Below, in pieces: positions 3,490 to 63,457 of a DNA stretch of 64,000 nt. The DNA comes from Mobula birostris. Taxonomy: Eukaryota. A model generated the notes under the pieces. That model saw only the letters and a list, made by a program, of their open reading frames with translations, was not told the DNA's origin and did no database searches. Position 1 is the stretch's first letter; every line of letters starts with the position of its first letter. Location of the stretch: positions 94,641,712 through 94,705,711 of the forward strand of contig NC_092383.1 in assembly GCF_030028105.1 (NCBI RefSeq). The letters are read 5' to 3'. A program made the translations under genes and the position numbers.

Positions 3490-4400
3490 GATGTTGAGGA
3501 GCTCAGCAGGTCAGGCAACATCTATGGAAAGGGCGTTCCGGGCCATGACGTTTCATCAGGAAAGGAAGGAGAGAAGTCAGAGTAAGGAGGTGAGGGAGGG
3601 GAGGAAGATGTACAAGGTGTCAGATGATAGGTGAATCTGGGGCGGGAGGGGTGAAGTAAAGAGCTGGGAAGTCAATTGGTGAAAGAGATAAAGGGCTGGA
3701 GAAAGATGAATCTGATAGGAGAGAACAGAAGATTATGGAAGAACGAGGAGCACCAGAAGGAAGTGATGGGCTGGTAAGGGGATAAGGTGAGAGAGAAAAA
3801 AATGGAAATGGGAATGGGGAATGGAGAAGGAGAGGAGGAGGGCATTTACCAGACGTTCGAGAAAATCGATGCCCATGCCATCAGGTTGGAGGCTACCCAG
3901 ACAGAATACAAGGTGTTACTGCTCCAACCTTTGTACTCCAGGGAGCGTGAAGCGCAGAATCAAATATCGCTGTGATGATTGTACGTTCTAGTATCAATTG
4001 TTTGGCGACAATAAAGTATAAAGTAACCTGAGTGTGGCCTCATCCTGGCAGTGGAGGTGGCCATGGACTGACATGTTGGAATGGGAATGGGAAGTAGAAT
4101 TGAAATGAGTGGCTACTAGGAGATCCCACTTTTTGTGTCGGACAGTGAAGGCGCTCGGTGAAGCTGTCACCAACTCTCAAGGCGATCGCAAGGTGGCCAT
4201 CCACTTCAATTCTTACTTCCACTCCCTCCACTTTCTTACTGTCATTTCTCCCGTTCCTTCCCACTCCTGAAGAAGGGTCTAGGCCCAAAACATTAACTGC
4301 TTGTTCATTTCGATAAATGTTGCATGACCTGCTGAGTTCCTCCAGCATTTTTGTGTGTTGCTTTGGATTTCCAGCATCTTCAGAATCTCATGTTTGTGAT
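3490..4400. mobile_element. Penelope-like element remnant with inverted terminal segment, carrying a 94-bp LINE-tail insertion
   Basis: Similar to the 3' part of the 32552-33919 element. The terminal motif occurs in both orientations. Insert 3931-4024 is flanked by AACCT duplicates. Confidence 0.7.
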
Positions 4401-5189
4401 TCCCATCTGTCTGATTGACCAGAGTCAGATTCAGATTTAATATCAATCGCATATGTCATGAAATTTGTTGTGTTATGGCAGCAGTACACTGCAATGCACA
4501 AGAAAACTTAACTTACAGTAAGAAATATATAACTATTACCAACAATTGTTGTGTCATCGGCAAACTTATAGATGGAATTTGAGCTGTGTCTAGCCACACA
4601 ATCACAGGTGTAGAGAGAGAAAGGCAATGGGATAAGGCATATCCTTGAAGTGCACCAGTGCTGACTGGCAGTGAGGAGATGTTATTTTCCAATCCACAGT
4701 GGCTATGGTTCCCCGATGAGGAAGTTAAGGATCCAGTTGCAGAGGGAGGTGCAGAGGCCCAGGTTTTGGAGCTTGTTGATCAGTATTGAGGGTAGATTGG
4801 TGTTGAGTTCTGAACTGTATTCACTCAATACAGAACAGCAAGATTAATGTAGGTATTGTGAATGTCCAGGTGATCCAATGCCATGTGGAGAGCCAGTGAG
4901 ACTGCATCTGTTGAGGATCTATTGTGGCGAAAGGCAAGTGGCAGCGGATGGTGGTCCTTGCTCAGGCAGGACTTGAATTTGATTTTGGCAAGACAAGGTT
5001 TCTCCACTGTACCCCAGATATGTGACAACTTTGAACCAATTGCCAATCCAGAACACGAATCTCTAGGGCAAAGTCAGAAATTCAAACACTGACTTGTTAA
5101 TTTCAAGATCCATTCAGGAAAGAGAACTTCCATTCAGCCCACTTCTCTCTGCTAGCAGCCCCATTCAGGACCTAAAACAATATTTGCAG

Positions 5190-6420
5190 ATTTAAAACTC
5201 CTTGCACACAGACTGATCTGTAACTGGATCCTTGACTTCTTGACCGTAAGGCCACAGTCAGTAAGTGTTGATTGAAACATCTCTAGCTCCATCTCTCTGA
5301 GCACCAGTGCCCCCCAGGAATGTGTGTTCAATCCGTTGCTGATCATGGTGCTGACACATGACTACCCTGCTGAATCCAGTAAAAACGGAATCAAGTTCGC
5401 CAATGACACAACAGTAGGTGGCCTCATCAACAGCGACGACAAGGTGGCATACAGAGAGGAGGAAGAGCGGCTAGTAAAATAGTGCAAGCACAACGGTGAG
5501 TCTCAACATGAACAAGACCAAAAAGATCATTGTGGACTTTAGGAAGGTGCAGTCTGATCATTCCTCACTGCACTGCACGTCATCTCCCTCTCTCACTCTC
5601 CCTTCTGTTACACACACATTGTCTCCCTCTCTCCCCTCTGTTACACACACACTACTCCTCCGTGGAGAGAACTAGGAGAACTAAGTTTCTGGGAGTGTAC
5701 ATAACAGACAATCTCACCTGGTCCCTGAACATCACCTCTTTGATCAAGAATGCACAGCGGCATCTCCACTTCCAGAGGAGATTAAAGCCAGTGACGCTCT
5801 CCTCCCCTCCCTCACATTTTAACCAATTTTTATGGGAGCGCCATTGAGAGTTTACTGCATCACCGTCTGGTACGGGAATACAAGGCACCTGCCTGCATGT
5901 CTCTACAAAGGACTGCGAGGGCTTCTGAGAGGATCTTCAGGGTCTCTCTTCTCATCAGAGATATTTATCAGGAGGGCTGAATACACAGGGCCCTTAGCAT
6001 TATCAATGATCCCTCCCATCCATCCAACAATCCCTTTGACCCCCTACCATCAGGCAGGAGGTACCATATCATTAGCACAAGAACTGTTAGGATGGGAAAC
6101 AGCTTCTTCCCCCAGGACACAAGGCTACTGAACTCCCTGCCAGCCTCCAGGTCTCATCATGTATAGGCACTGGTTTACTTTTACTTTTAAAACTTGTATT
6201 GAATATGCACCTCACATAAAAGTTGCTGGTGAACGCAGCATCTGCAGATTTCCTCGTGTTTGCGTTGAATATGCACCTTATTATTTGTTGTTGTAATGTT
6301 GCTGTGCATTACGTGTGTGAGTAGACATACTGTGTTGTGCACCTGGGTCCAGACTATCATTGTTTTGTTTGACAGTACACGTGTACAGTTGGATGACAAT
6401 AAGCTGAACTTGAACTTGAT
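5190..6420 (+). mobile_element. Rex/Babar-type LINE RT fragment (degenerate)
   Basis: Remnant motifs GAPQECV, KFANDTT, KFLGVYITDNLTWS and CITVWYGN, ending in an (AACTTG)n-type tail. Confidence 0.75.
6213..6264. mobile_element. 52-bp inverted micro-insertion of the young Penelope family
   Basis: 14-bp TSD TTGAATATGCACCT (6199-6212 and 6265-6278). The first half is identical to 32559-32586. Confidence 0.8.
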
Positions 6421-7769
6421 GCACACAAAATGCTGGAGGAACTCAGCAACAGCCATGGAGAGGAATAAACAGTCAATACATGCCGAGACCCTTTATTCCA
6501 CTCCGTAGATGCTGCCTGAACTGCTGAGTTCCTCCAGCACTTTGTGTGTGTTGCTCTGGATTTCCAGCATCTGCAGAATCTCCTGTGTTTATGATTTGCA
6601 CCCAGACTACCGATATGCTGTGCATAGATCTAACCAGAGGTTTGGCGGCGGGGGAAGTCCTAAAGGGAACCAAACAGAGGAAACAAAACCACTGCGGTAC
6701 TTTTGACTTGACTCTGCCGGAACTGGGATTCCTGATCCTGTACCCTGATCAGATAATAACAAATAGTGTGAACGTTTATTATCAAAGTATGTATACATTA
6801 TACAACCTTGAGATTCGCCTCTTTACAGGCAGCCACAAAACGAAGAAACCCAAAAGAACCCATTAAAAAAGACCATCATACACCCAGTGTGCAGAAAAAA
6901 AACCAAAGCATGCAAACGATAAACACAAGCAAATAGCACTCTGAACTGAAGTCCACAAAGAGAGTCAAAGGAATTATCTGACTGTAATCCAACACCAGAA
7001 TGCCATTGTCCCAACTAAGCAACTTCGATTCAGCTCAACGTTCATGCATTCAGTGTTGGGTCCTGCATATTGCGTACGACTAATAGTAGATGTTTCACAA
7101 TGCTTGAAATCTTGTGTCATCAGAATTACGGTATTACCACTCACATTTCCTGTAATGGCTAAGAGTCACAAGTTAACAGTGAAGAACTGGGTGTACCCTG
7201 TTGGATTTAATTCAGAAACACAGGACGAAGCTCGGCGGAGACCATTCTAACCGCTGCAGCGCAGGCCGGTACAGAGTCTCCAATGCACAGGATCGCAGGA
7301 GGTACGGGGGTTGTAGACTCAGCTAGCACAGGCACAACCCTCCCGCCATCGAGGATGTCTTCAAAAGGCAGCATTCATCACTAAGGACCTTAACCATCTG
7401 GGACACGGCCACTTCTCACCACTATCAACGAAGAGGTGGTACAGGAGCCAGAAAACTCACATCCAACGATTCAGGAACAGCTTCTTTGCCTCTGCTATCA
7501 CATTTCTGAACAGCCCATGGACCTAGAACATTACCTCACTACTCATGTCTTTCTACTTTGCTTGTAATTTATAATTGTACTTCGGCACTGTAGAAAGCAA
7601 TGGATTTTACAAGTGTTAGTACATCTGATTATAAACTTTGCTGTTAATAATGGCCAAAAGGACTGACCAATTCCCTAAACTAACCCACGTGGGAATTGCT
7701 CCAAGTAAGGGAAGTATATGAAAGAGCATGACTGAAGCACGTCATGACAGTTTAAAACTCTACACAGTG

Positions 7770-8726: not shown

Positions 8727-8807
8727 CAGGAGTTCCCAACCCTTTTTTCTACCATGGAGCAATGCCATTAGGTAAGGGGTCTGTGGACCCTAGGTTGGGA
8801 ACCCCTG
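8727..8807. mobile_element. hAT-type MITE (81 bp)
   Basis: TIRs CAGGAGTTCCCAACC / GGTTGGGAACCCCTG. 8-bp TSD CTTTATGT / CTTTCTGT (7/8 match). Confidence 0.8.
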
Positions 8808-10904
8808 CTTTCTGTGGACTAATGAAGGGTTATGTGGACTATGAAGGGTTATTTCATCTGGTCCAATGAAGGTTCCCAACCTGAAATATCAGCTGTCCAT
8901 TTCCCTCCAGAGATTTGCTTGACTCAGTGAGTTCCTCCAGCATTTTGCATGTTGCTCCAGATCCCAGCATCTGGAATCTCTTGTGGCTTCACTTCATTGC
9001 CCATTAACCTGTGATGTTAATTCTACCCTGCAGTTGCATTCAGAGTCCCCAAGCACAGGTTTTAAACTTCAAACCACAATAACCTTTACAGATTGGTGCT
9101 GCATTAAACAACAGTTTTATCTGGCACTGGGGAAGTGAGATTCCGATGACATTCAGAACCAACTTGAACTTCTGTGATTCAGAATAATTTATGCTTGTAC
9201 TTTAGTGATGGACAGAATCAAGTTTATCATTGTTTTTAATGAAAGTAATTTTAATGTTTTGCAACAGCAGTATGTTGAAAGCAGCAGCCCTGGGTTTGTT
9301 GGACTGTCTGTGTGCGAGCAGGAGGAAGGAAGAGAAAGGGGTTTTTCTGGCTGATGTTCTTCTGTTGTTATTGTTGCTCTGCTGAACAGTGTGGACGTGC
9401 AACATTGGTGCATGTGTGGCGACCCTTGTAGGCTGCCCCAAGCACATCCATAGGTTGCACTCGTTGTCCAGGCTGCTATACAGTACAATGTCAAATCAGA
9501 TGGAAAATGGAAGGAACAGGAGCCTCGGGACTCACACCACCAGGTTCAGGAGCACTTATCACCCCTCAACCATCAGGCTCTTGAACCAGAGGGGACAACC
9601 TCACTCGCTACATCCCTTAACTGTTCCCACAACCTGTAGATTCACATTCAACGAGCCTTCATCTCATGCTCTCGACATCTATCGCTTACTTGTTTTTTTT
9701 TCTCTTTTGTATTTGCTCAGTTTGCTTTCTTTTACGCACTAGTCGTCTGCCCTTTTGGGTGCAGTCTTTCACTGATTCCACCATAGTTCTTGGACCTACT
9801 GAGCATCCCCACAAGAAAACCAATTTCCGGGTTTTATATGGTGAAATATTTGTACTTTGATAATAAGCTTACTTTGAGTTTTGAAGTCACTTCTCATCTT
9901 TCATCTCTCCAAAGAGAAAAGCCCCAGCTTGCTCAGCCTTCCCTCATAAGACACTGAATGTGCAGAGTTTGTCATCCTTTTACCCTGGTGGTGCAGCCTT
10001 TCATTGATTCTATTATGGCTATTGGATTCATTGAGTTTGCCCACAGGAAAATGACTCTCAGAGTTTATAATCAAAGCGCATATATGTACTTTGACTATAA
10101 ATTTATTTTGAATTTTGGACGGATACGATTTAGTTTCAAGATAGGTTCGTTTTTAAAGCAATACCCACAAAACAAACAATTTCACTGCATGTTTCAGTGT
10201 ACTTGCGATGAATAAATCTCAATCTGAATTACAAAATAAATAATGTTAAAACAAGAGCAGTATGCACATCCCTTGCATTTCTCCGAAAGTGGAAGCGAAT
10301 TTACATTGAGGAACCAACTTAGTTTCACGCCGGCTAGCAACTCACTAAACCCATCTGTGCCACAAAGCTAGATTCAAGATCTGTGCTGCCGGACCAGGCA
10401 GAGGGCACTTCAGGGAAGGAAAGGAAACAGAAAAGGCATCACAGACTGCCAGTAATGACTAGGCAGCCCTTATAGATTTCCTAACACTGGTCCAGCATAG
10501 AGTTCAAAGCATTCAGCGAATGAATGTCTAGATATCACTGCACCCAGAGACGTAGTTCAGCAATACAACGGGCTCAGATTACAGTTCAAAGAAACTGATA
10601 GTGCAACTAAGCTTTCACAAAAACCAAATTACTAATTAAATTCAGCGTAAGCCTTCATTAACCAAATACATGGTTTAAATGAATCAAAAGCAAAAAGTTA
10701 AATGATTCAACCCAGTTAATATAACTAAGTCAACAATAGAGGAGGATAAGTTATCATTAACATCTCACCCTTGGATCAGCAAGTGCTCACAATATTGTTG
10801 ATTCTGTCACTGTACTTATTACACCCCTTAATTATTCTTCAATAACTCCACATTAGTATTGCCAGCTTGTCAAGAAAAACATTTTTAATAACCAACCATA
10901 AACT

Positions 10905-11205
10905 CAAGAGATTCTACAGATGCTGAAAATCCAGAGAAACACATACAAAATACTGGAGGAACTCAGCAGGTTGGGCAGCATCTATGGAAAAGAAGAGTCG
11001 ACATTTCGGGCCAAGACCTTTCATCAGGACTGAAAAGGAAGGGGGAAGAAGCCAGAATAATTATTCTATAATAACTCTTAATCCGGCTTCTTCCTCCTTC
11101 CTTTCCAGCCCTGATGAAGGGACTCTGTCCAAATTGTTGACTGTTTATTCCTCTTCATAGATGCTGCCTGGCCTGTTGAGTTCCTCCAGCATTTTCTGTG
11201 CGTTG
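10905..11205. repeat. Inverted pair of Penelope terminal repeats (long hairpin) with two hammerhead-motif copies
   Basis: ~10939-11062 is an imperfect reverse complement of ~11079-11205. Each arm has CTGATGA...GAAA/AAA. Confidence 0.8.
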
Positions 11206-11395
11206 CTTTAAAAACTAACCTACCTTGAAACTAAATTACAGCCTTTGCATCTGACTGGAGATTGTACAGTAATATGCACAGTAATGTACAGAATTTATCC
11301 TTAAACTATGAAAGGGTGCACCAGCTGAATATCCCCCTCAGTTCACAAACACGATTCATCTGCAAAGCTCCTCCCTCATAACACAAAACACTTAC

Positions 11396-11464: not shown

Positions 11465-12699
11465 GAGAGATGATCAGGTCGCAGGAAACTTAGGGCATTG
11501 CACTGGGACCTTGTTATTGGGCTTGCTTGAAGGAGTCACATCAGGAAGAGCCAAATAAAAACCAACAGTGGCTGTAAATCAGAAGAAGTAATTAGCAAAC
11601 AAGAAAGGATATTATTTTATAATATTATATTTGGTTTTAACACCCAACAAATTCCTGTAAAAAAATTAATTGGCATCCATTGAGATACGTAGCAACCACC
11701 CATATGGCGAACTTCATCATGAGCATGGGCTGAAAAGTCCCACTCCGATAACGAAGGAGAACAGTGGGAAGCTCCCAGTGCAAATAGTCATAGTCATACT
11801 TTATTGATCCCGGGGGAAATTGGTTTTCGTTACAGTTGCACCATAAATAATAAATAGTAATGGGTGAAATTAACGGTACTGGCAAAGAAAAGGAATCGCG
11901 GCATAAGGGACTTGAGTGAGCAGAGCCGGCAAGCGTTGCAATGAACGCAAGGACTGCAGGATAGACAGCTTCAGCAACTAGTTGATACTTTCAGTTTTTG
12001 GAATACAGGAATGACTGGCAAGGCTGAGGTTTATATCCATCCATAAATACCATTGAACCAACTGCTAGCTCGGCTGCTTGTAAAAGGATTAAAATTTAAC
12101 CAGATGAGAATTCTAAAGGGCAACAGAGAATTCTGAGATTGTTTCCCCTGACAATTGGGCAGCTAATGCTCTCTATTAATGGCACACCTATCACGTCCAG
12201 CTTCTCACTTCATTCCCAATCCTTCATCCATCTCCTTTCGTCCTCACCAGGACTCACCTATCACTTGCCAGCGTGTACTCCTTCCCCACCTTCACCTTCC
12301 TTCCCCTTCCTTTGCAGTCCTGATGAAACCACCTGAAACACCAACTGTTTGTTCCTTTCCAAAGATGCTGCCTACTCTGCTGAGTTCCTCCAGCATTTTG
12401 TACATGTTGCTATTAACGGCACAAGCATGTTCTTCCAGATTTAATTGACAGTATTGAGTTTACCAGCTGCCAGTGTGGGTGAGATGTGAACACACCTCCC
12501 ACCAAATCCTTGGAAAAGCTGAATGATTTAAATCTCACATTGAAGTCCTCCAAAAAAAATCAAAAATCACACGAATCATACTGCCACCATTGCAATAGAC
12601 AAGTACAGGAGCCAAGAAAGTTCACTCCAAATTATTAAAAGCGGGAAACAGCAAAGAACCACTTGGTTGCGGATTAATTTATTTATCTATTTATTTATT

Positions 12700-18500: not shown

Positions 18501-20287
18501 TCAGGGCGGCCGGACTATAGGCATTCAAGGCTTTTGGTTGGCCCTTCCTGGGCGCTGAGAACCCAAGGAGGGCCAACTGAAAATTCGGAGGATTTTAATG
18601 AGATCCCCCTCGTTTTTCTTAAACCAGCAACACGCCTCATAGTTAACCCTTTCATTCCCTGGATCATTCTAATAGATCTCCACTGGACCATCTCCAACGC
18701 CAGCATGTCCTTTCTTATGTCTCCTCTGACCCTTGGAGAATATCAATGCTCATTAAGGACCCCACCCTTACAGGAATGCCCTTCCTTGTCCCTGGCTGGA
18801 CCTACTCCTGTCTTCTCTACCTTCCTGCTCCTATGATATCCTCTTTTATCCTCGCCGACAAAGATATTTCATGGTCCGTTTTAGCACCCCCCCAACCCTT
18901 CCTGCGTCCTTTCTGTTCCCAGCTTCCCAATCCTTCCTCTTTCTTTTTGACTAAACCTACAACGTGTTTTTAAAGATTTAAGCTTGCCCAGTAAATTGCT
19001 CATTAAACACCGCAAACAAAATGTCGACTAGGCTAGGCTGCAAGGAGAAATTGCAAAATTCAATGCAATTTTAATAAAAGACTCGAAGTATATTCTTGTT
19101 CAACAGTCAGAAATAGTATTTTGAATAGCTAACGGTGGTTTTAACATTCAAAGTTCAAAAATGTTGTATTTTTAAAAGAAAAATAGCAAGGAAATGAATC
19201 CGATTTAAAAGAGGGACCTGAGGTGAAATTTTTTCACGCAGAGTGTGGTGCACAAACGATGCGTACCCGAGTCGTTAGAGAACTGAGGCGGGTCATTTAC
19301 AACATTTTAAAAGCATTCGGACAGGTAACACACACAATTATGGAGAAACTCAGCAGGCCAGGCAGCGTCTACGGGAAGAAAATAAACAGTCGACGTTCTC
19401 GGCCCGAAACGTCGATTGTTTACTCTTTTCCATTGTTGATGCTGTCTGACCTGCTGAGTTCCTCCAGCAATTTTGCGTGTGTTACTTTGGATTTCCAGCA
19501 TCTGCAGATTTTCTCGTTTTTGTGATTTGGACAGGTAGATGGATAGGTTTTAGGGGAATTTGGGCCAAACGGAGGCAGATGGGACCAGCTTTGACAGACA
19601 CATTGATCGGCAACAACACGTTGCGCCGAAGGATCTTTTTCGAACTGACCCTAATTTGAAAAATCCTGAACGCACCTAAACCTCCTTCAGTCAGTAGTAA
19701 CAAGACCTATCCGGGCACAAGTGGGATTTTCTGCTGGGAGCTGCTCGCTATTACACCTGCCTTCCAGCGTGAGCACACACTCCGCGGGCAGGGCAGCAGC
19801 CGACAGCGGGAAGAGGGGAATGTACCGGGCCGGTCTGGCCCGTCACCCCAGGTACACTACAGATGATTTCAGGTGGGGACGCGGTCTGGTAGAGGGCGAG
19901 CCCTCGCATCGGCTGATGCTATTGACTCAAGCCGTCGCCCATCAGATCGCGCACACCCGAGGCTATCCGCGGAACCAGTTTACCGACCCTCAATCCTGCA
20001 GCCTGCTGCGTGTCTGGGAACCCCCATGTCAGTCTCGGAGAGACTCCATCAGAAAGTCCAAACAGTTGAGCAAGACCTTAACAGCTCCGACAATCCGCTG
20101 GACGGGACCAGGTCAAGGATCCCAACCTGCCCGGTCCGCAAGGTCTGAAGGTCGGTGTGAGCCGCCAGATCGTCACCCATCTTTACTTGGGATAGTCTGG
20201 TTCCGTTCCCTGACGGTCCGCCTTTTGCTATCGCAATCCTTCAATTTACATCCAGCGACTCTGGCCCCGTAACCCTTTCCCGCAATC

Positions 20288-21180: not shown

Positions 21181-23434
21181 AAGATGAAGCCACGCCCGAT
21201 TCTACCCTGCGGAGCTCTCCATTCAGCGTGTAAAAGGGCTCCCGGGGTTTCCGGAGCTTCGATGGGTATAACCGGGATCACCCGGGGAGAGGCATTGCGG
21301 AGGCTGGGACGGGCGGACCCTGTCCTGTCACAAGCAGGGAATCTGCTGAATGTGGGACGGTCTCGTATCAAAGATCATAAGACACAGGAGCAGAATTAGG
21401 CCATTCAGCCCATCGAGTCTGCTCCACAAAAGAACCACACAGGCCATTCATACATTATGACAGTACTACCCAGGAACGGGTGTAGTGTGGATGAACAAAG
21501 TGCTGCAGGAACTCAGATTCATTTATCCCATGTACATTGAAATGCTTTGATTCTGTTAACAATAACACATCTAAGTATGTGCTGGGGACAGCCCACAAAT
21601 GTCGCCACACATTCCTGGCCCACAATGTTCAGCAGAATAATACAAGCAGCCAAAACAAAACAAGATACCGACAGTAAAACAAACCCCTTTCCCATCACTC
21701 ACACCCTCCCCTCTCCCCCCATCCACTCACACATCTAGACAGGCCTTCAACTCCAGGGCAGGCCACCCCTGGGCCTCTAGTCCTTAGCCCTGGACTCGTA
21801 GACATCAGCTTCCAACTTCAGACTTCTGTGGGCGAGGAGCGATAGAGCAGGGTCCACACCAAATGGCAACTGTCCAATCTCCTCCACAGATACTTGTCAG
21901 CTCCCTTGTTCATGGACCAGGGTTCTTTGAGGATCATCCATGTCCTGTTTAAATGTGATGAGGGTCTTTGTCTATGCCAGGAACAGAAGAAAGTCTGAAG
22001 ATACTGGAAATCCAAAGCAACACACACAGAATGCTGGAGGAACTCAACAGGTCAGGCAGCGTCTATGGAAAGGAATAAACATTCGACATTTTGATCTGAG
22101 ACCCTTCTTCAGGACTGGAAAGGAAGGGGGAAGACACTATAATAAAAAGGTGTGGGGGAGGAAGTGGAAGGATGTTAACTAGAAGCTGAGAGGTGAACCT
22201 AGTTGGGTGGGAAAGATAAAAGATTAGAGCGGAAGGAATCTGATAGGAAAGGAGATTAGACCATAGGAGAAAGAGAAGGAGGAGGGGACCCAGGGAAAGG
22301 TGATAGGTAGATGAGAAGAGGTAAGAGGCCAGAGTGGGGAAAAGAAGAGGGGAAGGTGAGGGAAATATTAAAAATATAACTGTCTACACTATCCTTGCAG
22401 GCAGCAAGTTCCAGATCCACATCACTTGTTTGGTGAAATAATCTTTCCTCTTATAAAGTTGAACCATACAGTGAAATGGTAACCTCTTTGTGGCGGAAGG
22501 TGGGCACCTTATGCTCACCTGATTAGCCTTCTCAATTCTTTTTGCCTGAATCAAATCTCTGCCCAGTTTATCTTGTTCAATCTGGGCAGCCTTTCCCTAT
22601 AACCAATTTTCCAGCACTGGTAACATCTGCATCCTCTCCGGTGAGCTGTATCCTTATCCTAGAGTAACCATAAGACATAGGAGCAGAATTAGGCCTTTCA
22701 GCCCATTGAATCTGCTCTGCTATTTGATCATGGCTGATGTAATATCCCTCAATGCTGTTCAGCCGGTGGTATAGCGACATCAGCACCGAACTTCGGATTT
22801 GAATCTTGCTGGCTCCTTGCACGCTTTCCATCCGTGCTGGGTTGAGCATCGAACTAGCAATTCAGCCTCGAAAAAAAAGACAAAAGTGCTAAAGAAACAT
22901 CAAGGTTTCCACCCAGTGTGCCACAAGGAACAGAGAGGAATAAAAAAAAACAATCCTATTCCCCTGCCTTCTCCCCATAACCTTTGACACCCTTACCAAT
23001 CTCTATTTTAAATATACATGATGACTTGACTTCCACAGTTGTCTGTGGCAATGAATTAATCATCCTCCGGCTAAAGGAATTCCCCCTCATCTCTGTTCTA
23101 AAGGGACGTCTTTCTATTTTGAGGCTGTGCCCTCTGGTTCTAGACCCCCCTACTGTAGGAAACATCCTCTCCACATCCAGTAGGTTTCAATGAGACTCCT
23201 GCCCCCTTTCCCCATTCTTCTAAATTCCAGTGAGTGCAGCCCCAGAGCCGTCAAATGCTCCTCATATGTTGACCCTTTTATTTCCAGCATCCCAGGATCA
23301 TTTTTGTGAACTTCCTCTGGATCCTCTCCAATGCTAGCACATCCTTTCTTAGATAAGGAGCACACATGAGTGGTGGTCATTGATCGAGCTGAAGTTTAAC
23401 CAGTGTTTAACACAAATCTAACACAACTTTCTTG

Positions 23435-24850
23435 TGCAACACACATAAAATCCTGGAGGAACTCAGGTCAGACAGCATTTATGGAAATGAATAAACAGTC
23501 ACCGTTTCAGGCTGAGACCCTTCATCAGGACTGGAAAGGAAGGGATGGATGCTAGAATAAGGTGGGGGGAGGGGAAGGTGTACAAGTTCAAAGGTGACAG
23601 GTGGGTGGAGTAGGGGATGAAGAAGTAAAAATTTGGGAAGTGATAGGTGGAAAGAATGAAGAGCTGGGGAAGGAATCTGGTAGGAGAAGAGTGGACCATG
23701 GGACAAAGGGAAGGTGAATGGGGTCCAGGGGGATGCGAAGGCTAGTGAGAAGAGATAAGAGGGGAGCAAGAAAGGGGAAATAAAGAAGAGGAAAGGGGGA
23801 TGGGGAAAAATTACCAGGTTGGAGAAATCGATGTTCATGCCATTGGGCTGAAAGCTACCTAGACACAACATGAGATGTTGCACCTCCAACCTGAGAGTGA
23901 CCTTATCATGACAGAAGAGGGAGGCTAGGACCAGCCTGATGGAATGAGAATGAGGATTATAATTGAAATGATCTGCCACCTGGAAATCCTTATTTTTGTG
24001 GATGGAGCCAAGGTGCTCACAATGCAGTCGCTCAGTCTATGTCAGGTCTCATCAATGTAGAGGAGGCTGCATCGGGAGCACCGGATACGTGGATGACCCC
24101 AGTAGATTTGCAGGCGAACTCTTGCCTCTCCTGAAAGGACTATTTGGGGTCCTGAATAGAGGAGAGGGAGAAGGTGAATGGGGAAGTATAGCATTTTCAT
24201 CATTTGTACTGATATGTGCCAGAAGGGAAATTAGTGGTGAAAAATGAATGGACAAGGGAATCATGGAGGGAGTGATTCTTGCAGAAAGCAGATAGTGGGG
24301 GGGGGGGGTTGGAGGGGAGAAAAAGATGTTTTTGGTAGTAGGATCCCGTTGAAGATACCTGACGTTGTGGAGAATGGTGTGTTGGATATGGAGGCTTATG
24401 TGGTGGTGGGTGAGGACAACAGGAATTTTATCCCTGTTAAGGTAGGAGGAAGATGGGGTGAGTGTGCATGTTTGGAAAATGGAGGAGATGCAGCTGAGGG
24501 CAGCATCAAATGGTGGCAGAAGAAAATCCTGTTCTTTGAAGAAGGAGGAAATTTCTGATGTCCTGCAAAGGAAAGCCTCATCCTGGAAACAGATGCAGTG
24601 TAGATGAAGGAACTGAGAAAAGGGAATGGCATTTTTTACAAGACACAGGGTGGAAACAGGTATAGTCAAGATAGCACAGAGAACAGCAGGTTTATGAAAG
24701 ACATCGGTGGACAGTTTGTCCCCAGAGGCGGTGACAAGAGAGGTTGGGAAGGGGGAGAGAGGTGTCAGAAATGGACTGAGTAAATTTAAGGGCAGGGCAA
24801 GAGTTGGAGGTAAATTTGATGAAATTGACAAACTCAGCATGAGTCACCAA
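23435..24850 (-). mobile_element. Penelope-like element, older degenerate copy (RT C-terminus + GIY-YIG + terminal repeat)
   Basis: ORF 24052..24840 has 'LSTDVFHKP..KNAIPFSQFL..SSFFKEQ..PVVLTHH' and is colinear with 32552-33919. Confidence 0.85.
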
Positions 24851-27800
24851 TGCAGCGCCAAGAGTTAGAGAGCATTACCAAGGAGGGCTTGGAAAAGGGA
24901 TGTTTATCTTGGCTAAGATAGCTAGCTTAGCTATGGTTATTTTGACTATACCTCTTGTTCTACCTCAATGCCCAACCAGATGTATCCTTGGATGTTATGG
25001 TAAAGGGAGGAGATTGCTAGGGCCTTGGCAGAGATATTTGTATCTTCCTTAACCACAGGTGAGGTACTGGAAGAGTGAAGGATACTAATATGCCTTTAAG
25101 AAGGGGATCATGGATTAACCAGACAGACTAGGCAGTATCTATGGAGGGAAATAAGCAGACATTTTGGGCCAAGAAGCTTCATCAAGTTTTAATCATAATT
25201 TGACAAAATGAATGACTTCACCAATTCACCTTGCATTTATTTAAAAGAAAATCGAATGGGAATACATCTTAGTCAACATTTCCTCAAAAGGTATTTAATT
25301 GCAAAAATTCATGTACTTGCTATAATTTGCATTCCAGCACTCAAACCAGTAACAGTTGTAGTTTATAGTAAATTGTAGTGGTCCTTTTTGAAATTGTGAA
25401 CTGTGAAAAACATGCTTTTAAATTTTAAACAAGTAACTATAATTTGCTTCCAGCTACAGGGACTGTAGGCAAAAATAAGTGCAGGTCAGAAGAAATGTAT
25501 CCTTTTTTTAATGCCAATATTGTAAATAAACCCAGGTTCATTCCTGCCTCTGTCTGTAAGGAGTATGTATGTTCCCCCCATGACCACGCAAGTTTCCTCC
25601 GGGTGCTCCGGTTTCCTTCGACATTCCAAAGACATACTGCTTGGTAGGTTAATTGGTCATTGTAAATTGTTTCATGATTAGGCTAGGGTTAAATGGGGAG
25701 CTGCTAGGCAGTGTGGTTCAAAGGGCTGGAAGGGCCTATTCCACATTATTTCTCTGTAAATAAATATTCAATCCAATTGAGTGTCCCCACACAAAATGGA
25801 GTTTTCCTCAGATTAAAGATAATGTTAAACTCAATGTTAGGAAAGGTTTGTGCTGTCGGAAGAAGGCCCCTTACTCGAGCAATCCCCTCCACCCCTCCGA
25901 TGGTGAGTGAGAGTCTGTTGGTTTGCGGAGAAGCGATATAGAAGATTGTAACATTCGAACAGCGAGCAGCTGGTCTCCGTTCTGATTGTTGCTGGAGCAA
26001 TCTCTCTCCCTCGCTAGTGACAGAGCCTGTCTGAGATATTGAAGTGTTGATTAAGGACCATAGATTTTGATGGCTCTAAATCAAAGTCTCTTTGGGGGCT
26101 TTTGCTATTGTTTGCATGGTTGGGGAGGGGTGGTTTCACTGTTTCTGCTGCTGCTTGTGTGTGGACGGGGCTTTGGGGCTCTGATATTTCTGTCATTCAT
26201 TTTGTTTTTTTTTATTTCGCCGACATCTGCGAAGAGCAAGAATTTCAGGTTGTATACTGTATACATTCTCTGATATTAAATTGAACCATTTGGAGAGATG
26301 TTAAATTCAGAACAGTAATTGGGGCTTTTGACACCATAAGATGTACAGTAGCTATGTAACAAAGATCGCTCTTTATGAAAATGGTGTAGAATGATGAGCC
26401 AACTGGCACAAGTTCTGGAAAATGATCACTCTGTTTTTACAGGCAATGATCAGTTCCTCAATAATTATAGGTTACAAACCCATTTGCTGTAAAATAAAGT
26501 CTCAGATGGGCCCTACGGCCAACTCCTAGCGCTTGAATCTAGACAGCGCAGCGTCAGATTGAGACGGCCAAGTATAAAGCAGATACAAAGATACACAGAT
26601 ACAAAGCAGGAGGGTCATGTAGCACAATAATGTTTATTTCTTTTCCTGAAAAATGTATAAATTATAGATGACCAATTGCAGCCAGAGAGCAGGCATGGAT
26701 ACAATCAAGTTCATGAATCCTTTTTCTTTCATCAAATGACATACAAGCACCAGCAGCAGCAGCAAAGTATGAACAACAGAATGCTCAAGTTTTTTAAACC
26801 ACTTACAATGTTTGAAATATGGACAAAATTCACACTTTTGAAACTCCCAATTACAATTACATATGTTGCATAAATAACCAGTGAACAACTTGCACACAAG
26901 CTGAATGATAATTCAGCTGAACAATCGAGTGCTGAGAGGTACCAGTCTGTTAGCACATCTCCCCCAAATTCCAGTAGTACACATACTCATCTTTTAAAAA
27001 CAAGTTTAATGTTATTTAATGCAGATAATGGTTATTATAGAGAATATTACTTTAATGTGCCCAAACATTGGTTTCAATAATAGCTGCTAATTACATTTGA
27101 TTATACAAGCATACCAGTTGCACTTTTTACCCTACAAACTTTTTTGAAAATTAAATGCTTTAAATGACACCACTTGTTTTTTTAATGCATGCTTCATCCA
27201 GCCCTGATCTTTCAAGTTTCAAGGTTTTTTTTGGGGGGGGGGGGGAGAGGAGAGAAACCAGAATGAAACTAGACAAATACTGTATGAACACCCAAAATGC
27301 TGGAGGAACTCAGGAGGTCAGACCACAATCTATGGAGAGGAATGAAGAGTTGATATCTCTGGCCAAGACCCTTCAACAGGGCCTTGACTCGAATGGCTCT
27401 TCACCCCTTTCCATAGATGTGGACAGACCTGCTAAGTTCCTCCAGCATTTTTGAGAGTATTAATCTGGATATCCAGCATCGGCAGAATCTCGTGTTTATA
27501 CATATATGCAATCAAATTTGAACAGGGCAAGGAAACCTTAACAACATCACTTTGAGTGTGTACACACACATGCACTGAAATTACTCAATACTATTTAAGG
27601 CCAACTAAACTTCTCACCCTGAAACAATCTCCACTCAGCTGTATCATGTAAGACTTCCCTTGAGATCTAAACATTACTTTGATATATCTCTATCCCTACA
27701 CAAGATAAACAGGTAAAATTCTTTAGTTCTGTGTAAACTTCACATGAAACACCTTTTGCAGTTTTATTCAGGCTCCACACGCACCAATTTGTTGTGAGCT

Positions 27801-30800: not shown

Positions 30801-31164
30801 GCTCTGGATTTCCAACATCTGCAGAATCTCTTGTGTTCATAGCAATGACAATTAGTTACAAATACCAATTAAATAATTTACATTATGTACTTGAGATAAT
30901 GAGCTGGCTGTAATGAGCTGATCCAAGGCCAGTGAATGTAGACAAAATAACTGTAGCCTGCCTCTTCAAGCACAAGTATTGAACTAACTGTGACTCACAG
31001 CAACAGTAGCAGCTTCTACTTATACAGTGCTTTTGACACAAGAATATTGTGGCATAAACACATTGTGCTTAACCAATCAAATTAGTAATGAAATGGCTAA
31101 CAATATTAACCTCGTCTACAAATTGTCCATACCCTTCCATTTTCCTCACATTCATGTGCCTATC

Positions 31165-32210: not shown

Positions 32211-32551
32211 TTCCCCGCCCGCCCCCAAACACCGCATTTTCGTCAACGCCCCCAGATTCTACGTGACCACAGACTTCATACAAGCAGCCAGTTAACTTAC
32301 CTACCCACACATCTCTGGCCTGTAGGACACTGAAGCACCCACACGGTCAAAAGGACATTATTCAAGACATCAGACTGGGGTCTCCGATATTTCAAGGTAG
32401 TAGCCCTACTAACTGCATCACTGTGTTGCCCAGATCTAGTAAGGTAACTTAGTAAGATTGAACAGAATATGATACCCTGACTGGTGATTATCTAATTTGG
32501 GCATCATATTGCTTAACTAGTGAAACCAAGAACCAATAGAGGAATCTTTCT

Positions 32552-33919: not shown

Positions 33920-34293
33920 GGAATCTTTCTGCTCCACAACAAGAATTCTAAATCATGTTTTTCAAAAAAAAAAATCACTTGCTGAGTTCTGGCATTCAAC
34001 GTTATTCAAACCCTATCCAACTTAAATGATGTCAGATTTTTTAAGAGCCTTCCCAATTTCATGCTCAAGATGGTAAGGTTTTAGTTTTCAATGCTAGGCA
34101 GCAAGGATCATTCTGAAAGCATGCAAATGTATGAATAAGTGAAAATTAAACATCTCAATGACAGAACCACAGTATTCACAGTTGAAAGACATTCCTAGTC
34201 CACCATGCATTAAACCCTTGCTCAACTAAAGTTTATGTACTGAAGCTTAAAACACCCAAGGGTTTGTTGTGGAGATTTACACAATTGATTGTA

Positions 34294-55530: not shown

Positions 55531-58500
55531 ATAAAGCTGCTGGGGTTTATAGTTTGAGACAGAAGTTGGTGGCTGATAGGGATTGGGTGAGGTGGGACAT
55601 AATGGTAGATGGAGCTGGGGGTGTATGGGGGTTGTAGTTTGAGACAGAAGTTGGTGTGTGACAGGGGGAAACAGATGAGGAAAAAGAAATTGAGCACGTG
55701 GAGCCAGGAGAGGGGAAAGCTAGAGAAGGGCTGCAAGCAACGTGGAGCCAGGTAAGGGAGAGGTTGTTGGCAGATGAGAGCATAAGTAGTTGGGGTTGGC
55801 CAAGGGAGGACCCAGGTGGATGCATGTGAGTGATGGGCAGATGGAACTAGGTGGAGGAGGATAATGGATCTTGGGAAGTTGGGGTGATAGATGACCATGG
55901 AGGAAAGAACCTACGTGGACTTCTTGGAGTGGGTTAGCTGAAACTGGACAATTCACTGTTCATACCATTGGCTTGGAAGCAAGTGAAATAGGAGGTGTTG
56001 GTAAGAACAGTGACTGTCGGGCACACCAATCCATATGGGTTTTTTCTTCCTTTCTCTCGCATCCCCCAGCTGTCTGAGACCCTCCAACAGTTTGTATGTT
56101 GATAGCTGGTTCATATTTTTCGTCGTGTATCCAACCAACACCTGTGTCTTGATACCTTTTACTTCAAGCTGTTCACAGCTGTGACATTTCTCTTTGCTGT
56201 GATTTAGTGACTTTTTCAGTTGAAAATGGAGGCCAAAGGAAGCATTGGTATTTAATCTGCATGACCTTTGAACACTGGAGTTATTCGTAGCATCGGTTAG
56301 TCAATGGGCAACAAAAAATCTGCTGGAGGAAGTCATTGGGTCAAGTAGGAAAGGAGTCGGGATGGACCTGAACCATAGACAAGTGCTGCTTGCTTCTCTG
56401 GATCATGTATGAAACGTCATTTTATTTTTTTTTAATGTGCTGTAAATACACCTTATGCTAAATGTCAGTCTTCTGGAATATATTTTATTTTTGCTATTTT
56501 ATTTGTGGTGTACTTTAAGTTTGCGTATGAGTTATATGTATGGTGTTTTGCAACTTGGTCCAGAGGAACATTGTTTCATTTGGTGGTATACGTCTACACA
56601 GTCGAATGACAATAAACTTGAACTTCCTCCAGCAGATGGTTGCTCTGGATACCAGCGTCTGCAGTCTCGTTTCTCTCCGTCAGCCAGTGTTGATGTAGGG
56701 TAGAAAATATGAGCCAGCAAACAGTGTGTTTTGCAGAAAACAATCAGACTCAGGTTTATTAAGGCTCCTACCCCACCAACTCAATGGTAATGACATAAAG
56801 AGGACATGGCTTGGATGGTGAGCGTTCTCAGCCACCTCTTGAAGATCTCCTGGATGTTTAAAGACTGGAGGAAACATTTTTGGCTTTGAATGAAGGATTG
56901 CATATGAATTGTTTGCTGAGGTTAATTATGAGTCATGATTATCAAGCTTGATTGGGCAAGGAATTATCCAGTCACCTTCATTCTGCTTGACAATGGAGTT
57001 TATATGTTATAGAAAGTAAGGCGATGGTAGATAACTGTACACTTAAATCTGAATATTCATGGAATGTATTATTGCTAATACTCAGAATAAGCCTGAATAA
57101 AATTGAGTATATTTTGATTGTAATGTTTTAAACTTCAACATTTGATACCTACTAAGACAAAAGGTATCAGTCAAAGTTAAGATGGCTTTCCTTTTTCTTT
57201 GGATTATTCTGTGTGAGTTATGTTTGTCACATGCAGGGTTATATGTGTCTGTGCAGTGCTGACAGGTGGCATCAGGTTGGCTAGCTCCTTTTATATTATT
57301 TACAAGATCATTAGACTATGAAGTCTTGTAAAAATCATTGTGGGTCCTACAGTAATGTGTCTACTATTAAATTCCAGTCTCAAAGTCGTTCTGGTTACAG
57401 GGGGATTGCAAGAATGTAAAAGCTCAGAGCGGGAATAAGCCATCCCACTATTTATCAAGATTTTAGCTGTTCTTCAACCTCAGCTCCTTTTTTTTTCTGG
57501 TGTTCTCCCATTTTCCTCAATTCCCTTAATGTCCAAAAATCTATTGTTCTTGATTGAGAATGGAGATAATTTAGCCTGAAGAGAAGCGGAAGCCCGCGGG
57601 TTGACAGTGAGAATTCAGGGAGTAGCTGTGCTTGTAAACTGAGAATAGTCACAGGAACTTGTTCAATCGAGTGGCTATTCATTGAGGCGAATCTTGATTC
57701 ACTAATCCAGGCAGCATTGAATGTTCTCGCCTGTGAACCACTGGAACAGATTTTAAACATTAAAGCAATTTGCTTTGCCCAGTTGTCACAGGGATTCAAG
57801 CTGCTGGAAGAAGGCTGAATAGAAGCTGTTAGCTTGTGTTAACAGATATTTCTGTTCATTCAAGGAATGTTGGCTTCGTACACTGACCCAATCTCAAAAT
57901 GCCCTTGAGAAGGTTACACCATAATAAGTTATGAGCAAAGTTTGTTTTTTACAGAGAAATATGTGCCTGGAATGCACCACCAAGGAATGTGGAAGAAGCA
58001 GATAAGAATAACAGGCGTTTAGACCAACACGTGATCATGTAGGGAATAGAGGCATATGGACCGTATACAGGAAGATTGGCATCATGGTTGATGCAGGTGT
58101 GGTGGGCTGAGGAGCTTAAGGGTGACATGTTAGCATCCTGCTTTACAGCTGCTGGTAAGATCAGGGTTCGATTCATACCACTGTCTATAAGGAGATAGTA
58201 TATTCTCCCCATGACTGGGAGATTTTCTAGTTTCCTCCCACATTCCACGAGTATGTTATGGGCATGTTGTGTTGGCACCAGAAGCATGGCAACATTTACA
58301 ATTTTTCTTTGATCCTATGGTTCTAAGTGTTTGCGCATAAGAAATCACGCAATTCTTTCCTAGACGATCTGTACTCTTTCCTTCGTAATATAAGCTTGAC
58401 AAGAACCTTTGTCTGTTAGCCAATCATTGCAATCCCTAATTTCTGGCTCAAGGCTAAGATGATCAAAAAGGGCGTGGCTTCTGCCCCCTTCCTGTCCAAT

Positions 58501-59591
58501 TCTGATGAAGGGTTTTCGCCCAATATGTCAATTGTTTATTCCCTTCTGTAGATACTGCCTGATTTGCTAAGTTCCTCTGGCATTTTGAGCATGTAGCAAC
58601 AAGCCCAATTATCACCTCCCTTGGTGCCTCCCTTCCATTTCCCCCATGGTCCACTCTCTTGTCAGATTCCTTCTTCAGCTCTTTACCTTTTCCACCGATC
58701 ACCTCTCAATTTCTCACTTCATCCCATTCTCCCCCACCCACCTACTGTCCCCCCTCACCTGGCTTCACCTGTCACCTTCCAGCTTGAGCTCCTTCCCCCC
58801 CCCTCCAACTTCTGTCCTAGCTTCTGCCCCCCTCCTTGCCAGTCCTGATGAAAGGCCTCAACCTGAAACATCAACTGTTCATTTCCTTCCATACATGTTG
58901 CCTGACCTGTTGGGTTCCTTCAGCATTTTGGTGCACTTAGCAACAAGTGCAATTAAAGTTGTAGTTGACTTTATTCTCTTTCTGTCTGTTTTGGCCAATG
59001 TTTTTGTTAATAGGAATGGTAGCTGCGTATAGTTCCAGCACATTAACACGATTAAGGAACAGCTCTTTCTAAAAAAAAAAGCATTTAAACAGGAGGGAGT
59101 ATTAAATGTCTTAGCATACTTAAAAGTGGATCAGCCCCATGGCCTGATGAGAAATGGCCCAGACTTCTGTATGAGGAGATTGCTCTAGCTCTAACAGATT
59201 TTTAAATCTCAGCTGGCCGTGGAGTGAGCTGCCAAGTGACTAGAAGGTGACAAGTCTTATTGTTATTCAAGAAGGGATGCAGTAATAAGCCAGGTAATTT
59301 TAGGCTTGTGGATCTAACACCAGTGATAGGAAAGTTATTGGAAAAAGTTTCTGAGGGACAGAATTAATCTACGCTTGGATTGCAAAAAGATAGCTAGTAT
59401 TGTTTAGTTCGGAGGATATCCTTGTGAGCAATTTGAGTGACATTTTTGAAACGATAACAAGCTGTACTAATGAGAACAGTACAGTTGATGTGGTCTAGAT
59501 TGACTTCAGTAGGCTTTGGATAAGGTCTTACATGGAGAAGATCCAAACAATTAGAGCCCATGGGACCCAGAGAAAGTTGATAAATTGCTTT

Positions 59592-59631
59592 CCAGTCCTG
59601 ATGAAGTCTCTCATTCTGAAACATCGACTGG
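59592..59631 (+). ncRNA. Degenerate Penelope hammerhead copy
   Basis: CCAGUC-CUGAUGA-AG...CU-GAAAC-AUC-GACUGG: perfect 6-bp stem I, but G16.2->A and a weak stem II. Confidence 0.55.
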
Positions 59632-59759
59632 TCATTCCTCTCCATAGATGCTGCCTGACGTGTTAAGTTTCTCCAGCATTTTGAGTGTGTTACTCCTAAA
59701 TTCACCTTCAGGAATCCTTGGATCTGTACGCCGGGATTCCTCAATATCCCATTATTTCT

Positions 59760-61714: not shown

Positions 61715-62100
61715 CCTCACTGCCCTTCACAACGCTGGCGTTTAGAGCAGCAATTAAGGTCCTCCATCTCTGGCAGTGTTCAGGGCTTCCTTCAGCATGT
61801 CGGTAGTTTCCTCTCAGTTTTCACTACTGTCAGTCACTCAGGTGTAGAAGGATTCTTCATTGCTGCTTACATAACAGTTTTATTTGACTAGTTAGGGTTG
61901 TTAGCCCAGAGCTGAACTCCTGAATCTGGAGGACCGGTGGACCACTCTTAGTCTGGCCTCTACCCTTTGGCCTGTTTGGCGTGGGTGACCCTACCAAGAG
62001 CTAAAGCATAAAGCCCTGGCTCCAGCCAACATAGCTCTCCAGGTCATTGAGGCATGCAAGCCTCCAAACCTATGACAAGGTTGTGGTCCTCTTGGAGGGA
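61715..62100 (-). mobile_element. RTE/Expander-like 5'UTR-derived element (tentative)
   Basis: The minus strand resembles RTE 5'UTR motifs (GGTAGGGTCACCCA..., GGGCTAACAACCC). Called by recognition only. Confidence 0.45.
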
Positions 62101-63457
62101 TGCTGCTATAATTACTATTCTATGCATTTGCTTGTGTGCCCACAGGAAACTGAATCTCAGTGTTGTATATGGTGACATGTATGTACTTTGATAATAAATT
62201 TACTTTGAATGTTAATCCATAAGAATGCGGTAACCAGTGGTCAATTAACAGATATGGAGTAGCAGATGAAAAGGAAATCAAGCAGGCCCTTCAGCACAAG
62301 AGGTTCATGACAACCGAGATGACCATTTAGTCTCATTTCACTTGTATCACTCTGAACCATTTGTGTCCATGTACTTGTTAAAGTGCTTTTAAATGTTGTT
62401 AATGTACCTTCCTCAATACTGAACACCCCTGATGTAGGGTCCCGTTTGAAGCTTTGGCTGCTTATTCCTCTCCATAGATGCTTGACTTGCTGAGTTCCTC
62501 CTGCATTTTGAGCATGTTGCAACAAGGCCAATTAACACCTCCCTCTGATGCCCTCCTTCCATTTCCCCTGTGGTCCCCTCTCCTCTCCTGTCAGTCCTCT
62601 TTCAGCTGTTTACCTTTTTCATCTATCGCGTACCAGTTTCTCACTCAATCCCTTTCCCCCACCTACCTCCCTTCCCCCTCACCTGGCTTCACCTGTCAGC
62701 TTTCAGCTTGAAATTCTTCCCCCCCCCGACACCTTATTCTGCCTTTTCCCTTCCTTGCCAGTTCTGATGAAGGGCCCCGACCCAAAACATCGACTGTTTG
62801 TTTCCCTCCATACATACTGCCTGACTTAACGAGTTCCTCCATCATTACTCTGTGTTACTCTGAAATTGTATCCAAAATTCACTTTCAGGGATCCTTAGGT
62901 CCGTACACTGGGATTCCTCAATATCCCATTACTTCTGTAATCTTAATACTAGTCTGAGCTACTCTCCATTGGCTTCCTGTATCTTTTAGAATTAATTTTA
63001 ATGTTCTCTTTTTAAGGTCTCAGTAGTCTAGACCAGAGTTCATTCCTATCCATAGATGCTGCCTGACCTGCTGAGTTCTTCCAACACCTTGTATTTATTA
63101 CTCTGTATTTCCAATATCTGCAAAATCTCTTGTTTTTATCTCGTTCCTCTCTCCTCTCACCAACCCTGGATAAAACACTGTTAAAACTTTGCAATTTCAT
63201 GTCAATACAGCTTAAAGAAAAGTTGATCCTAGTTATATAACGAGAAAGTTTTCTTCAATATTACACTGAGACCAAATAGGATAAATTAGGAAAGGCCCAG
63301 TTACCTTAGTGGAGAGGGTGAAGTTTAGGACATAGGTTTCAAGTAATTGGTTAAAGATTTATAGGGACACATTGCAGTATTTTCACTTTGTGGAGAACAC
63401 ACAAACTGAAAGAAACTGGTAGAGCCACAACCCTTCAAAATACTTAGAAATACTTAT

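Follow-up and report, generated by a model that had tools for sequence, protein, structure and literature searches.

What hammerhead ribozyme motif recurs along this 64,000-nucleotide stretch of Mobula birostris DNA (the window), what carries it, and how did so many copies arise? A sequence-only reading had listed eleven copies, and all eleven are present, at 4262, 11106, 12316, 58497, 58840, 59592 and 62758 on the plus strand and at 10996, 22081, 23496 and 37919 on the minus strand, as are both of its half-motifs (19380-19425 and 28695-28735). That list was an undercount, however; it overlooked two minus-strand motifs, the intact one at 32615-32652 and another, damaged, at 3559. An HMM of the 120-nt repeat end gave 32 matches in the window, 17 of them across the full core, and none in five block-shuffled windows or in the reversed window. 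Only 1 of the 17 cores, at 32615-32652 (minus), was whole. Rfam returned no hammerhead match at E≤5 in the window, which lowers the family filing only. Its miRNA-family matches at 11.0-11.1 kb were far below gathering scores and had their source in the hairpin of an inverted pair. The copies in the window are given below, with identities to a near-full element, L054.

32548..33923, minus: young 5'-truncated Penelope-like copy, 93.7% identical to L054, with (in order) RT C-terminal region, CX4CxxC linker, broken GIY-YIG, pyrimidine-rich 3' UTR, hammerhead and short 3' end; frame at 33281-33952, endonuclease remnants in two frames
32615..32652, minus: sole intact minimal type-I hammerhead of the window
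23436..24861, minus: older 5'-truncated copy, about 71-74% identical to L054, in which remnants of RT and endonuclease survive; hammerhead damaged, core at 23528
3479..4400, both strands: old compound insertion, a minus copy (core 3559, endonuclease remnant reaching 4145) and an inverted plus arm (core 4267) with a long tail
10894..11206, both strands: head-to-head pair, cores 11027 (minus) and 11111 (plus), one 3' end long and one short
6418..6592, both strands: short head-to-head pair, junction within the core
19328..19523, both strands: short head-to-head pair (the half-motif read at 19388)
27288..27501, both strands: short head-to-head pair
28198..28470, both strands: inverted arms about 95 bp apart, plus arm from -3
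28696..28826, plus: short copy (the half-motif read at 28710)
30599..30840, both strands: inverted arms about 75 bp apart
12185..12410, plus: old copy with a helix II deletion, core 12320
21982..22322, minus: old copy that retains 3' UTR and a long tail, core 22112
37857..38337, both strands: minus copy with 3' UTR (core 37950) and inverted 5' arm at 38247-38337
58475..58937, plus: direct partial tandem in pseudo-LTR arrangement, cores 58502 and 58845 both damaged
59587..59693, plus: short old copy, core 59598
62408..62858, plus: direct partial tandem, cores at about 62428 and 62764, both damaged
1878..1946 (plus), 8166-8211 (minus), 8866-8952 (plus), 25107-25184 (minus), 60547-60631 (plus) and 63037-63139 (plus): six repeat-end fragments

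Judged from sequence, the motifs are hammerheads in the pseudo-LTR, or 3' end, of a very abundant Penelope-like element. The terminal-repeat origin proposed for them was confirmed by their link to an element with RT and GIY-YIG domains, the motif lying ∼360 nt downstream of the stop in the frame that encodes RT and GIY-YIG. The RT piece of the window had 148,354 first-look candidates genome-wide, and 150 of these were scored, at 88–100% identity. In the best of the 150, L054, an 899-codon frame contains RVT_1 (E=1e-5, below the Pfam cut-off) and is followed after a frameshift by the GIY-YIG endonuclease domain (23.2 bits against a cut-off of 22.6). No intact single ORF was found among the 150; relatives have one ORF and carry PF00078 and PF01541. 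The window's own RT fragments had no match in Pfam, and a PDB sequence search with the RT region gave no match at E≤0.01.

A CX4CxxC linker lies upstream of GIY-YIG in both L054 and the window copy, and alignment with relatives revealed the CCHH motif of the endonuclease (CxxC between the VIY and YIG halves, plus two later histidines). Placed by its CX2-5CxxC linker motif and not by a tree, the element appears Neptune-like (Neptune or Nematis). We rejected the Penelope/Poseidon clade, which PMC8557442 defines by an absent linker zinc finger, because the linker motif is present here. Similar to the Neptune and Nematis elements described in that source, the element has RT followed by a C-terminal GIY-YIG, the linker and the CCHH motif, as well as partial tandems, an inverted 5'-truncated neighbour and a 30–40-bp tail at one end; tandems, inverted 5' copies and one-end tail were all found, as in EN+ Penelope-like elements. 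The one-end tail is reported as occurring “often” in Neptune/Nematis (PMC8557442) and was seen in 32 of 32 cases here. There are at least two subfamilies, of different age, most copies are 5'-truncated, and DNA matching one young copy makes up at least 4% of sampled sequence. Our literature search found no paper on Penelope in mobula or on stingray Penelope transposable elements; the family may well already stand in Repbase or Dfam, and the supplements of a 2026 preprint (bioRxiv 10.64898/2026.07.22.740005) may cover it.

The genome-wide load is very high, as had been claimed from a density of about one copy per 5 kb. Using a two-box pattern that does not demand helices, we counted 73,261 whole catalytic cores in the genome (18 per Mb) against 41 in the control, and the exact 34-nt young core occurred 30,949 times. 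In 75 segments of 10 kb taken at fixed round positions (750 kb), there were 97 core-spanning copies, equal to 129 per Mb or 1 per 7.7 kb, which extrapolates to ∼0.5 million in the genome (0.4–0.6 million). Thus, the density is not peculiar to the window, although the window is about twofold richer (1 per 3.8 kb; 17 seen versus 8.3 expected, Poisson P=0.005), a comparison biased in its favour by the seeding of the HMM from window copies.

The window's intact motif has a 5-bp helix I, CUGACGA, a bulged A, a 4-bp helix II and GAAA-CG-UC, lacks loop 3, and is predicted to cleave after 32620. It belongs to the minimal type-I hammerheads, with CUGAnGA and GAAA..UH boxes, pairing possible in helices I and II (helix II closed by G-C), one unpaired A and a palindromic ACGU at 15.2-16.2, without loop 3. 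The fold matches the features listed for min-HHRs of metazoan PLE pLTRs (PMC4209133), namely type I, a short helix I, an unpaired nucleotide before G10.1, a palindromic 15.2-16.2 and no loop 3; the same source describes mostly single motifs on truncated copies and close opposite-strand pairs, as found here. In contrast, helix II is 4 bp here and 7–8 bp in the Schistosoma families. A relative on a metagenome contig (L289, one of eight loci returned), a single natural copy, has the same core ∼130 nt past its endonuclease match; in two pairs of helix I both partners differ, and helix II is imperfectly paired. The predicted monomer fold was not the hammerhead (-7.5 kcal/mol) but a rod spanning -4..+31 that pairs both catalytic boxes (-11.5 kcal/mol); the intact monomer fold had a z of about 0 against shuffles, and the minimum-energy fold of two copies was not a dimeric hammerhead. 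For a single Schistosoma min-HHR of the same class no cleavage was seen (PMC4209133), and cleavage of the anole PLE hammerhead needed protein (PMC11167929). Because of these precedents and the missing loop 3, lone copies, even intact, are predicted to be poor cutters, with cutting expected only from dimers or when a protein assists.

Inserted copies decay as was proposed at CpG positions (36% versus 12%). In 36 old copies, 110 of 283 CpG positions were changed, 100 of them by transitions. Among 40 flank-spanning copies, CpG lesions in G12, helix III or G1.1 were present in 29 (13 of these had no other kind), 19 had a non-CpG core lesion, and 8 had none. These counts support the view that CpG deamination caused more lesions than any other single source. 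Of the description “mostly inactivated by CpG deamination,” the source of the lesions stands, while “inactivated” overstates the starting point. The apparent retention of CUGAUGA was a selection effect. In 24 old copies from outside the window chosen by their flanks, the box was whole in only 11, and 16 of 140 box positions differed (11.4%), compared with 101 of 867 in the downstream flank (11.6%).

These observations bear on whether the host keeps dispersed hammerheads by selection, as RNA-processing elements. The 73,261 whole cores could be read in that way, as could the few changes (4 of 96) at the AAA..U positions of the old copies outside the window. However, the CUGA-GA box decays like the flank (P=1.0), the non-CpG core does not differ significantly from the flank by base class (P=0.41 and 0.17), and intact cores are mostly those of the young subfamily, with 1 of 17 whole in the window. 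Host selection is therefore very improbable, though individual exapted copies are possible. We favour maintenance of the motif in the active lineage and not in inserted copies, which decay at the background rate; this belongs to an explanation that we consider, as a whole, very probable, combining abundant Penelope-like 3' ends, poorly cutting hammerheads, uncleaved template and paired priming.

The ends of copies bear on how they insert. Counting the C of CUGAnGA as 0, with the cleavage site at +27/+28, we mapped 100 young copies, all in the opening 5.2 Mb of a single chromosome, along with 98 old copies. At the start of helix I (-5..-1) lay 22 young and 23 old 5' ends, whereas the 100 nt that follow held 11 and 18 (P<1e-19 for the excess). 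The young edge had three ends at -5 and none at -6..-9, with a skew toward the 3' side. The 3' ends fell into two groups, near +94 and +130 (∼35 nt apart): of 100 ends, 48 lay at +82..+102 and the other 52 at +120..+136. All 32 head-to-head insertions paired one long with one short 3' end, and their target duplications had a mode of 14 bp. While motif and carrier are of known kinds and the basic finding is ordinary, this analysis adds the long-plus-short pairing and, as the unexpected feature, the 5' pile-up at helix I.

In the insertion mode we favour, the endonuclease would cut both target strands ∼14 bp apart, and the two target 3' ends would prime reverse transcription internally, one per site, on uncleaved RNA. 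Many cDNAs would halt at the helix I front, probably by running off the RNA 5' end, and two cDNAs would then be joined head to head. Snap-back of cDNA on helix I was rejected as a general origin of inverted arms, as the starts of partner arms are spread over -11 to +59 and farther, and few lie near +33. A hammerhead that cuts the RNA, so that the cleaved product serves as template, is the model proposed in PMC4209133, but copies run through the site, and a 5' end at +24..+32 was found in only 1 of 198 (1 of 100 young, 0 of 98 old). Moreover, the dominant substrate of the anole element is uncleaved RNA (PMC11167929), and we consider a cleaved template quite unlikely here, though RNA may be cut and then religated into circles.

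The anole element, Poseidon of Anolis carolinensis (PAc; PMC11167929), resembles this one in having two internal RT start sites that bound the tail, both strands cut and extended, and an uncleaved RNA template. Unlike it, PAc is a member of the clade that lacks the linker zinc finger, and the PAc ORF begins within the hammerhead; the parts of that source drawn on here report neither a strand preference of start sites nor a 5'-end pile-up at helix I.

Many copies are short: a start at -5 or farther in was seen for 43 of 100 young copies and for 60 of 98 old ones, and an inverted neighbour accompanies 46 of the 100 young copies. These numbers might suggest a separate non-autonomous family (SINE, retrozyme or MITE-like) spreading from its own short copies, as might the derivation of animal retrozymes from pLTRs (bioRxiv 10.64898/2026.07.22.740005). 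We think this unlikely, since junctions and fillers vary by locus, only the inverted arm is shared upstream, the long-plus-short rule is common to long and short copies, and Tandem Repeats Finder detected no array of the hammerhead unit in the window. A retrozyme of head-to-tail 150–450-bp non-coding units was likewise rejected; with no array in the window, copies enter coding sequence or end at unique junctions. Non-LTR retrozymes (PMC7229834; bioRxiv 10.64898/2026.07.22.740005) are similar in that their load of hammerheads is very high (axolotl has 126,247, ∼4.5 per Mb) and in their relation to pLTRs, and the one chondrichthyan genome sampled in those sources was positive. They are described as tandem non-coding arrays with canonical type I motifs, whereas the motifs here lie scattered, as the single or inverted ends of an element that codes for protein.

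The pile-up at the ribozyme's front edge likely marks the RNA start of the element, as read from its sequence. Of 43,529 copies, 4.75% had a purine in place of the templated T immediately before -4, compared with 0.88% of 35,192 at a control position, a genome-wide enrichment (5.4-fold) weaker than the 100-copy sample suggested; 81 of 85 loci inspected were junctions and not point variants. Alternatively, the pile-up could come from structure, with RT copying the whole -4..+31 rod and falling off as RNA and cDNA refold. The predicted rod boundaries coincide exactly, the extra-G signal expected of a cap is modest (1,272 G versus 797 A), and microhomology with the inverted arm accounts for some of the G set. 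On the other side, the sharp left edge and 3'-side skew are those of run-off followed by trimming, and, among singles with a target duplication, filler precedes the junction in 9 of 12 from the G set versus 5 of 13 from the A set. The A at -4 also stands, in both subfamilies, in a YYANWYY word that we take to be initiator-like. An extra G marks the junctions of capped full-length L1 (PMC11702581), which likewise speaks against a structural stop. We regard such a stop as a real possibility, if not the expected one.

Our tentative proposal, which we would put somewhat short of even, is a capped transcript from the A at -4, one RNA copied twice from two sites and the run-off cDNAs joined head to head. 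If so, ∼40–60% of the half-million copies would be “strong-stop” products, like retroviral strong-stop DNA, the strict one-long-one-short rule would be explained, and the hammerhead load would be the densest among the published figures we found. As a reference, PMC4209133 gives ∼9,000 for Xenopus tropicalis and ∼4,000 for coelacanth, against our 73,261 two-box cores, for which helices were not required; two of the three files of its supplement contained no shark or ray name. The use of the family lies in this scale (∼73,000 whole cores and an estimated 0.4–0.6 million core-spanning copies). Because there are so many junctions, Penelope insertion mode can be counted from the genome alone, and the counts point to an uncleaved template, each priming site used once per inverted insertion, and a frequent stop at the helix I front.

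Splicing was rejected as the source of the pile-up, there being no shared upstream exon in 50 young copies or 85 junction loci. Loose contig ends at 32651 (4 of 23 sequencing runs) reflected upstream sequence of the older subfamily and not an RNA start. An internal promoter in the pLTR would be a common feature with Drosophila virilis Penelope (PMC2377424), in which, unlike here, the mapped start lies ∼120 nt upstream of where the intron ends. In that element an intron end abuts helix I (PMC4209133), and directly before helix I our element similarly has a pyrimidine tract and AG, though our copies showed no spliced junction.

All eleven hammerhead motifs and both half-motifs that the sequence-only reading had reported in the window are present, where it placed them or a few bases off. 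The motifs lie within a repeat end ~100–135 nt long. An HMM of this end matched the window 32 times, and 17 of these matches span the whole core; the reversed window and five shuffled windows gave no match. The only intact motif of the window (32615–32652, minus strand) had been overlooked. The two direct tandems, at 58.5–58.9 kb and 62.4–62.9 kb, have damaged cores; most inserted motifs occur singly or on opposite strands, and we predict that these are silent.

The carrier is a Penelope-like element. The intact motif lies at the end of a 1.4-kb stretch (32548–33923, minus strand) that is 93.7% identical to L054, a near-full copy elsewhere in the genome. The window also holds an older long copy and three retroelement remnants:

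23436–24861: older long copy
17259–18314, minus strand: retroelement remnant with an RVT_1 match
35285–35923, plus strand: retroelement remnant with no Pfam match, presumably a CR1-type LINE tail from its appearance
51606–52148, minus strand: retroelement remnant with an RVT_1 match

L054 contains an 899-codon frame whose reverse transcriptase (RT) match falls short of the curated cut-off (E = 1e-5). A frameshift separates this frame from a GIY-YIG domain that passes its cut-off. CX4CxxC is found in the linker and CCHH in the endonuclease; by motif definitions alone, as given in the available part of PMC8557442, the element would be Neptune- or Nematis-like, not Poseidon. Among named proteins, those of Mobula hypostoma (89% over 64% of the query) and Chiloscyllium punctatum (70%) are closest, which makes a ray the probable host. 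One Mobula protein (P0056), which carries the annotation chitinase domain-containing protein 1 isoform, matches the element at 89% and is probably an exonised or mis-annotated copy of it. Immediately 5′ of helix I, at 32653–32700 (minus strand) and in all long copies, lies a pyrimidine tract ending in AG; it resembles a 3′ splice site, and spliced copies were not seen.

A very high genome-wide load had been proposed from the window, and sampling bears this out. Seventy-five stretches of 10 kb, at round positions on large contigs, contained 97 core-spanning copies, or 129 per Mb, which extrapolates to 0.42–0.63 million (Poisson interval only) in the 4.01-Gb genome; the window rate is ~2 times that of the sample. 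The genome-wide motif scan suggested as a check returned 73,261 matches to CTGAnGA-N13-GAAACGTC vs 41 for the reversed control, a pattern that does not demand helices and whose descriptors differ from those behind published counts. These include ~9,000 min-HHRs in Xenopus tropicalis and ~4,000 in coelacanth (PMC4209133, accessible portion), and, from the parts available of two further sources, 126,247 canonical motifs in axolotl, ~4.5 per Mb at 28.21 Gb (PMC7229834; bioRxiv 10.64898/2026.07.22.740005). Exact matches to a 34-nt core of the young subfamily number 30,949, and those to a downstream 29-mer 59,584.

Decay was followed in copies chosen by their downstream flank alone, with a model that gave 175 matches, of which 170 were kept after 5 at stretch ends had been dropped. 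Sequence upstream of the core extends for 12 nt or more in 40 of them, of which 36 are old and 4 young. The proposed CpG decay is evident in the old set, where 110 of 283 CpG positions are changed (100 by transition) vs 102 of 739 non-CpG G/C positions in the flank (P = 2e-17). Core lesions in the 40 copies are CpG only in 13, of both kinds in 16, non-CpG only in 3 and absent in 8. The claim that CUGAUGA is preferentially retained did not survive. Window copies, mostly seeds chosen for the box, make up 12 of the 36 old copies; without them the CUGA-GA box differs as the flank does (11.4% vs 11.6%), and the apparent retention is therefore a selection effect on otherwise neutral decay. The AAA..U positions show fewer changes, in small numbers (4/96).

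Positions at copy ends are counted from the C of CUGAnGA. Among 100 listed matches to the downstream 29-mer, all young and in the first 5.2 Mb of one chromosome, 3′ ends fall into a short group (48 at +82..+102) and a long group (52 at +120..+136), and the span between them is the known 30–40-bp tail. All 32 head-to-head pairs scored among these loci join one long to one short arm and share flanking words (mode 14 bp). We propose that both target strands would be cut with a stagger, that uncleaved RNA would be the template, primed internally and once per site, and that the two cDNAs would be end-joined.

At the other end, 22 of the 100 listed young copies start at −5..−1 (mode −4), with none at −6..−9 and a thinning out to +20; 23 of 98 old copies in the independent 750-kb sample of 75 stretches also start at −5..−1. 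Only 1 of 198 copies starts at +24..+32, around the cleavage site predicted between +27 and +28. Run-off of the cDNA at an RNA 5′ end near −4 has, in our estimate, an even chance of being correct; arrest of RT after the −4..+31 hairpin, instead of run-off, is a tentative possibility. Genome-wide, 2,069 of 43,529 copies have G or A instead of the templated T at position −5, vs 311 of 35,192 at −10; 81 of 85 inspected loci of this kind are junctions, G is 1.6-fold more frequent than A, and several junction fillers end in TG or TTG. Capped ends of the retrotransposon L1 are marked by an extra G (PMC11702581, part available). Because part of the G excess is microhomology with the inverted arm, these data only suggest a cap at the RNA 5′ end. 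At four inspected loci (L270, L275, L281 and L285), fillers at the 5′ junctions frequently contain repeated bits of the first bases of the core, as though RT had stuttered there.

The motif consists of helix I (5 bp), CUGAnGA, one unpaired A, helix II (4 bp) and GAAA-CG-UC. Its helix layout, unpaired A, palindromic ACGU and absent loop 3 are shared with the min-HHR as presented in the accessible text of PMC4209133, where a single Schistosoma motif does not cleave and multimers cleave weakly. No Rfam hammerhead model matched at E≤5. The intact monomer is predicted to form a rod pairing both boxes (−11.5 vs −7.5 kcal/mol; z ~0). In the young subfamily, as at 32628 and 32643 in the window, most cores carry U at 11.1, so that catalytic G12 loses its CpG, and C at N7, by which the predicted inactive rod is strengthened. 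In Poseidon of Anolis carolinensis, protein is needed for cleavage, and cleavage is dispensable for insertion (PMC11167929, in the portion available). A metagenome contig relative (L289) has the same core ~130 nt after its endonuclease match, in 1 of 8 metagenome loci for this relative; two pairs of its helix I are altered on both sides, and its helix II pairs imperfectly.

Our literature search found no paper on Penelope with Mobula or stingray; retrozymes were found in the one chondrichthyan sampled in the available part of bioRxiv 10.64898/2026.07.22.740005.

By the HMM, 20 kb of the window (38340–58470) lack repeat-end copies, possibly through purifying selection around a gene. This gap spans a 246-codon uninterrupted OTU1/YOD1-type deubiquitinase frame (43137–43877, minus strand; Pfam OTU and zf-C2H2_OTU1_C), which is a large exon or a retrocopy, and a GC-rich stretch, possibly a promoter island, at ~53.2–54.2 kb. 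At 20290–20649, a GC-rich unit of 29 bp is repeated in tandem 12.3 times.
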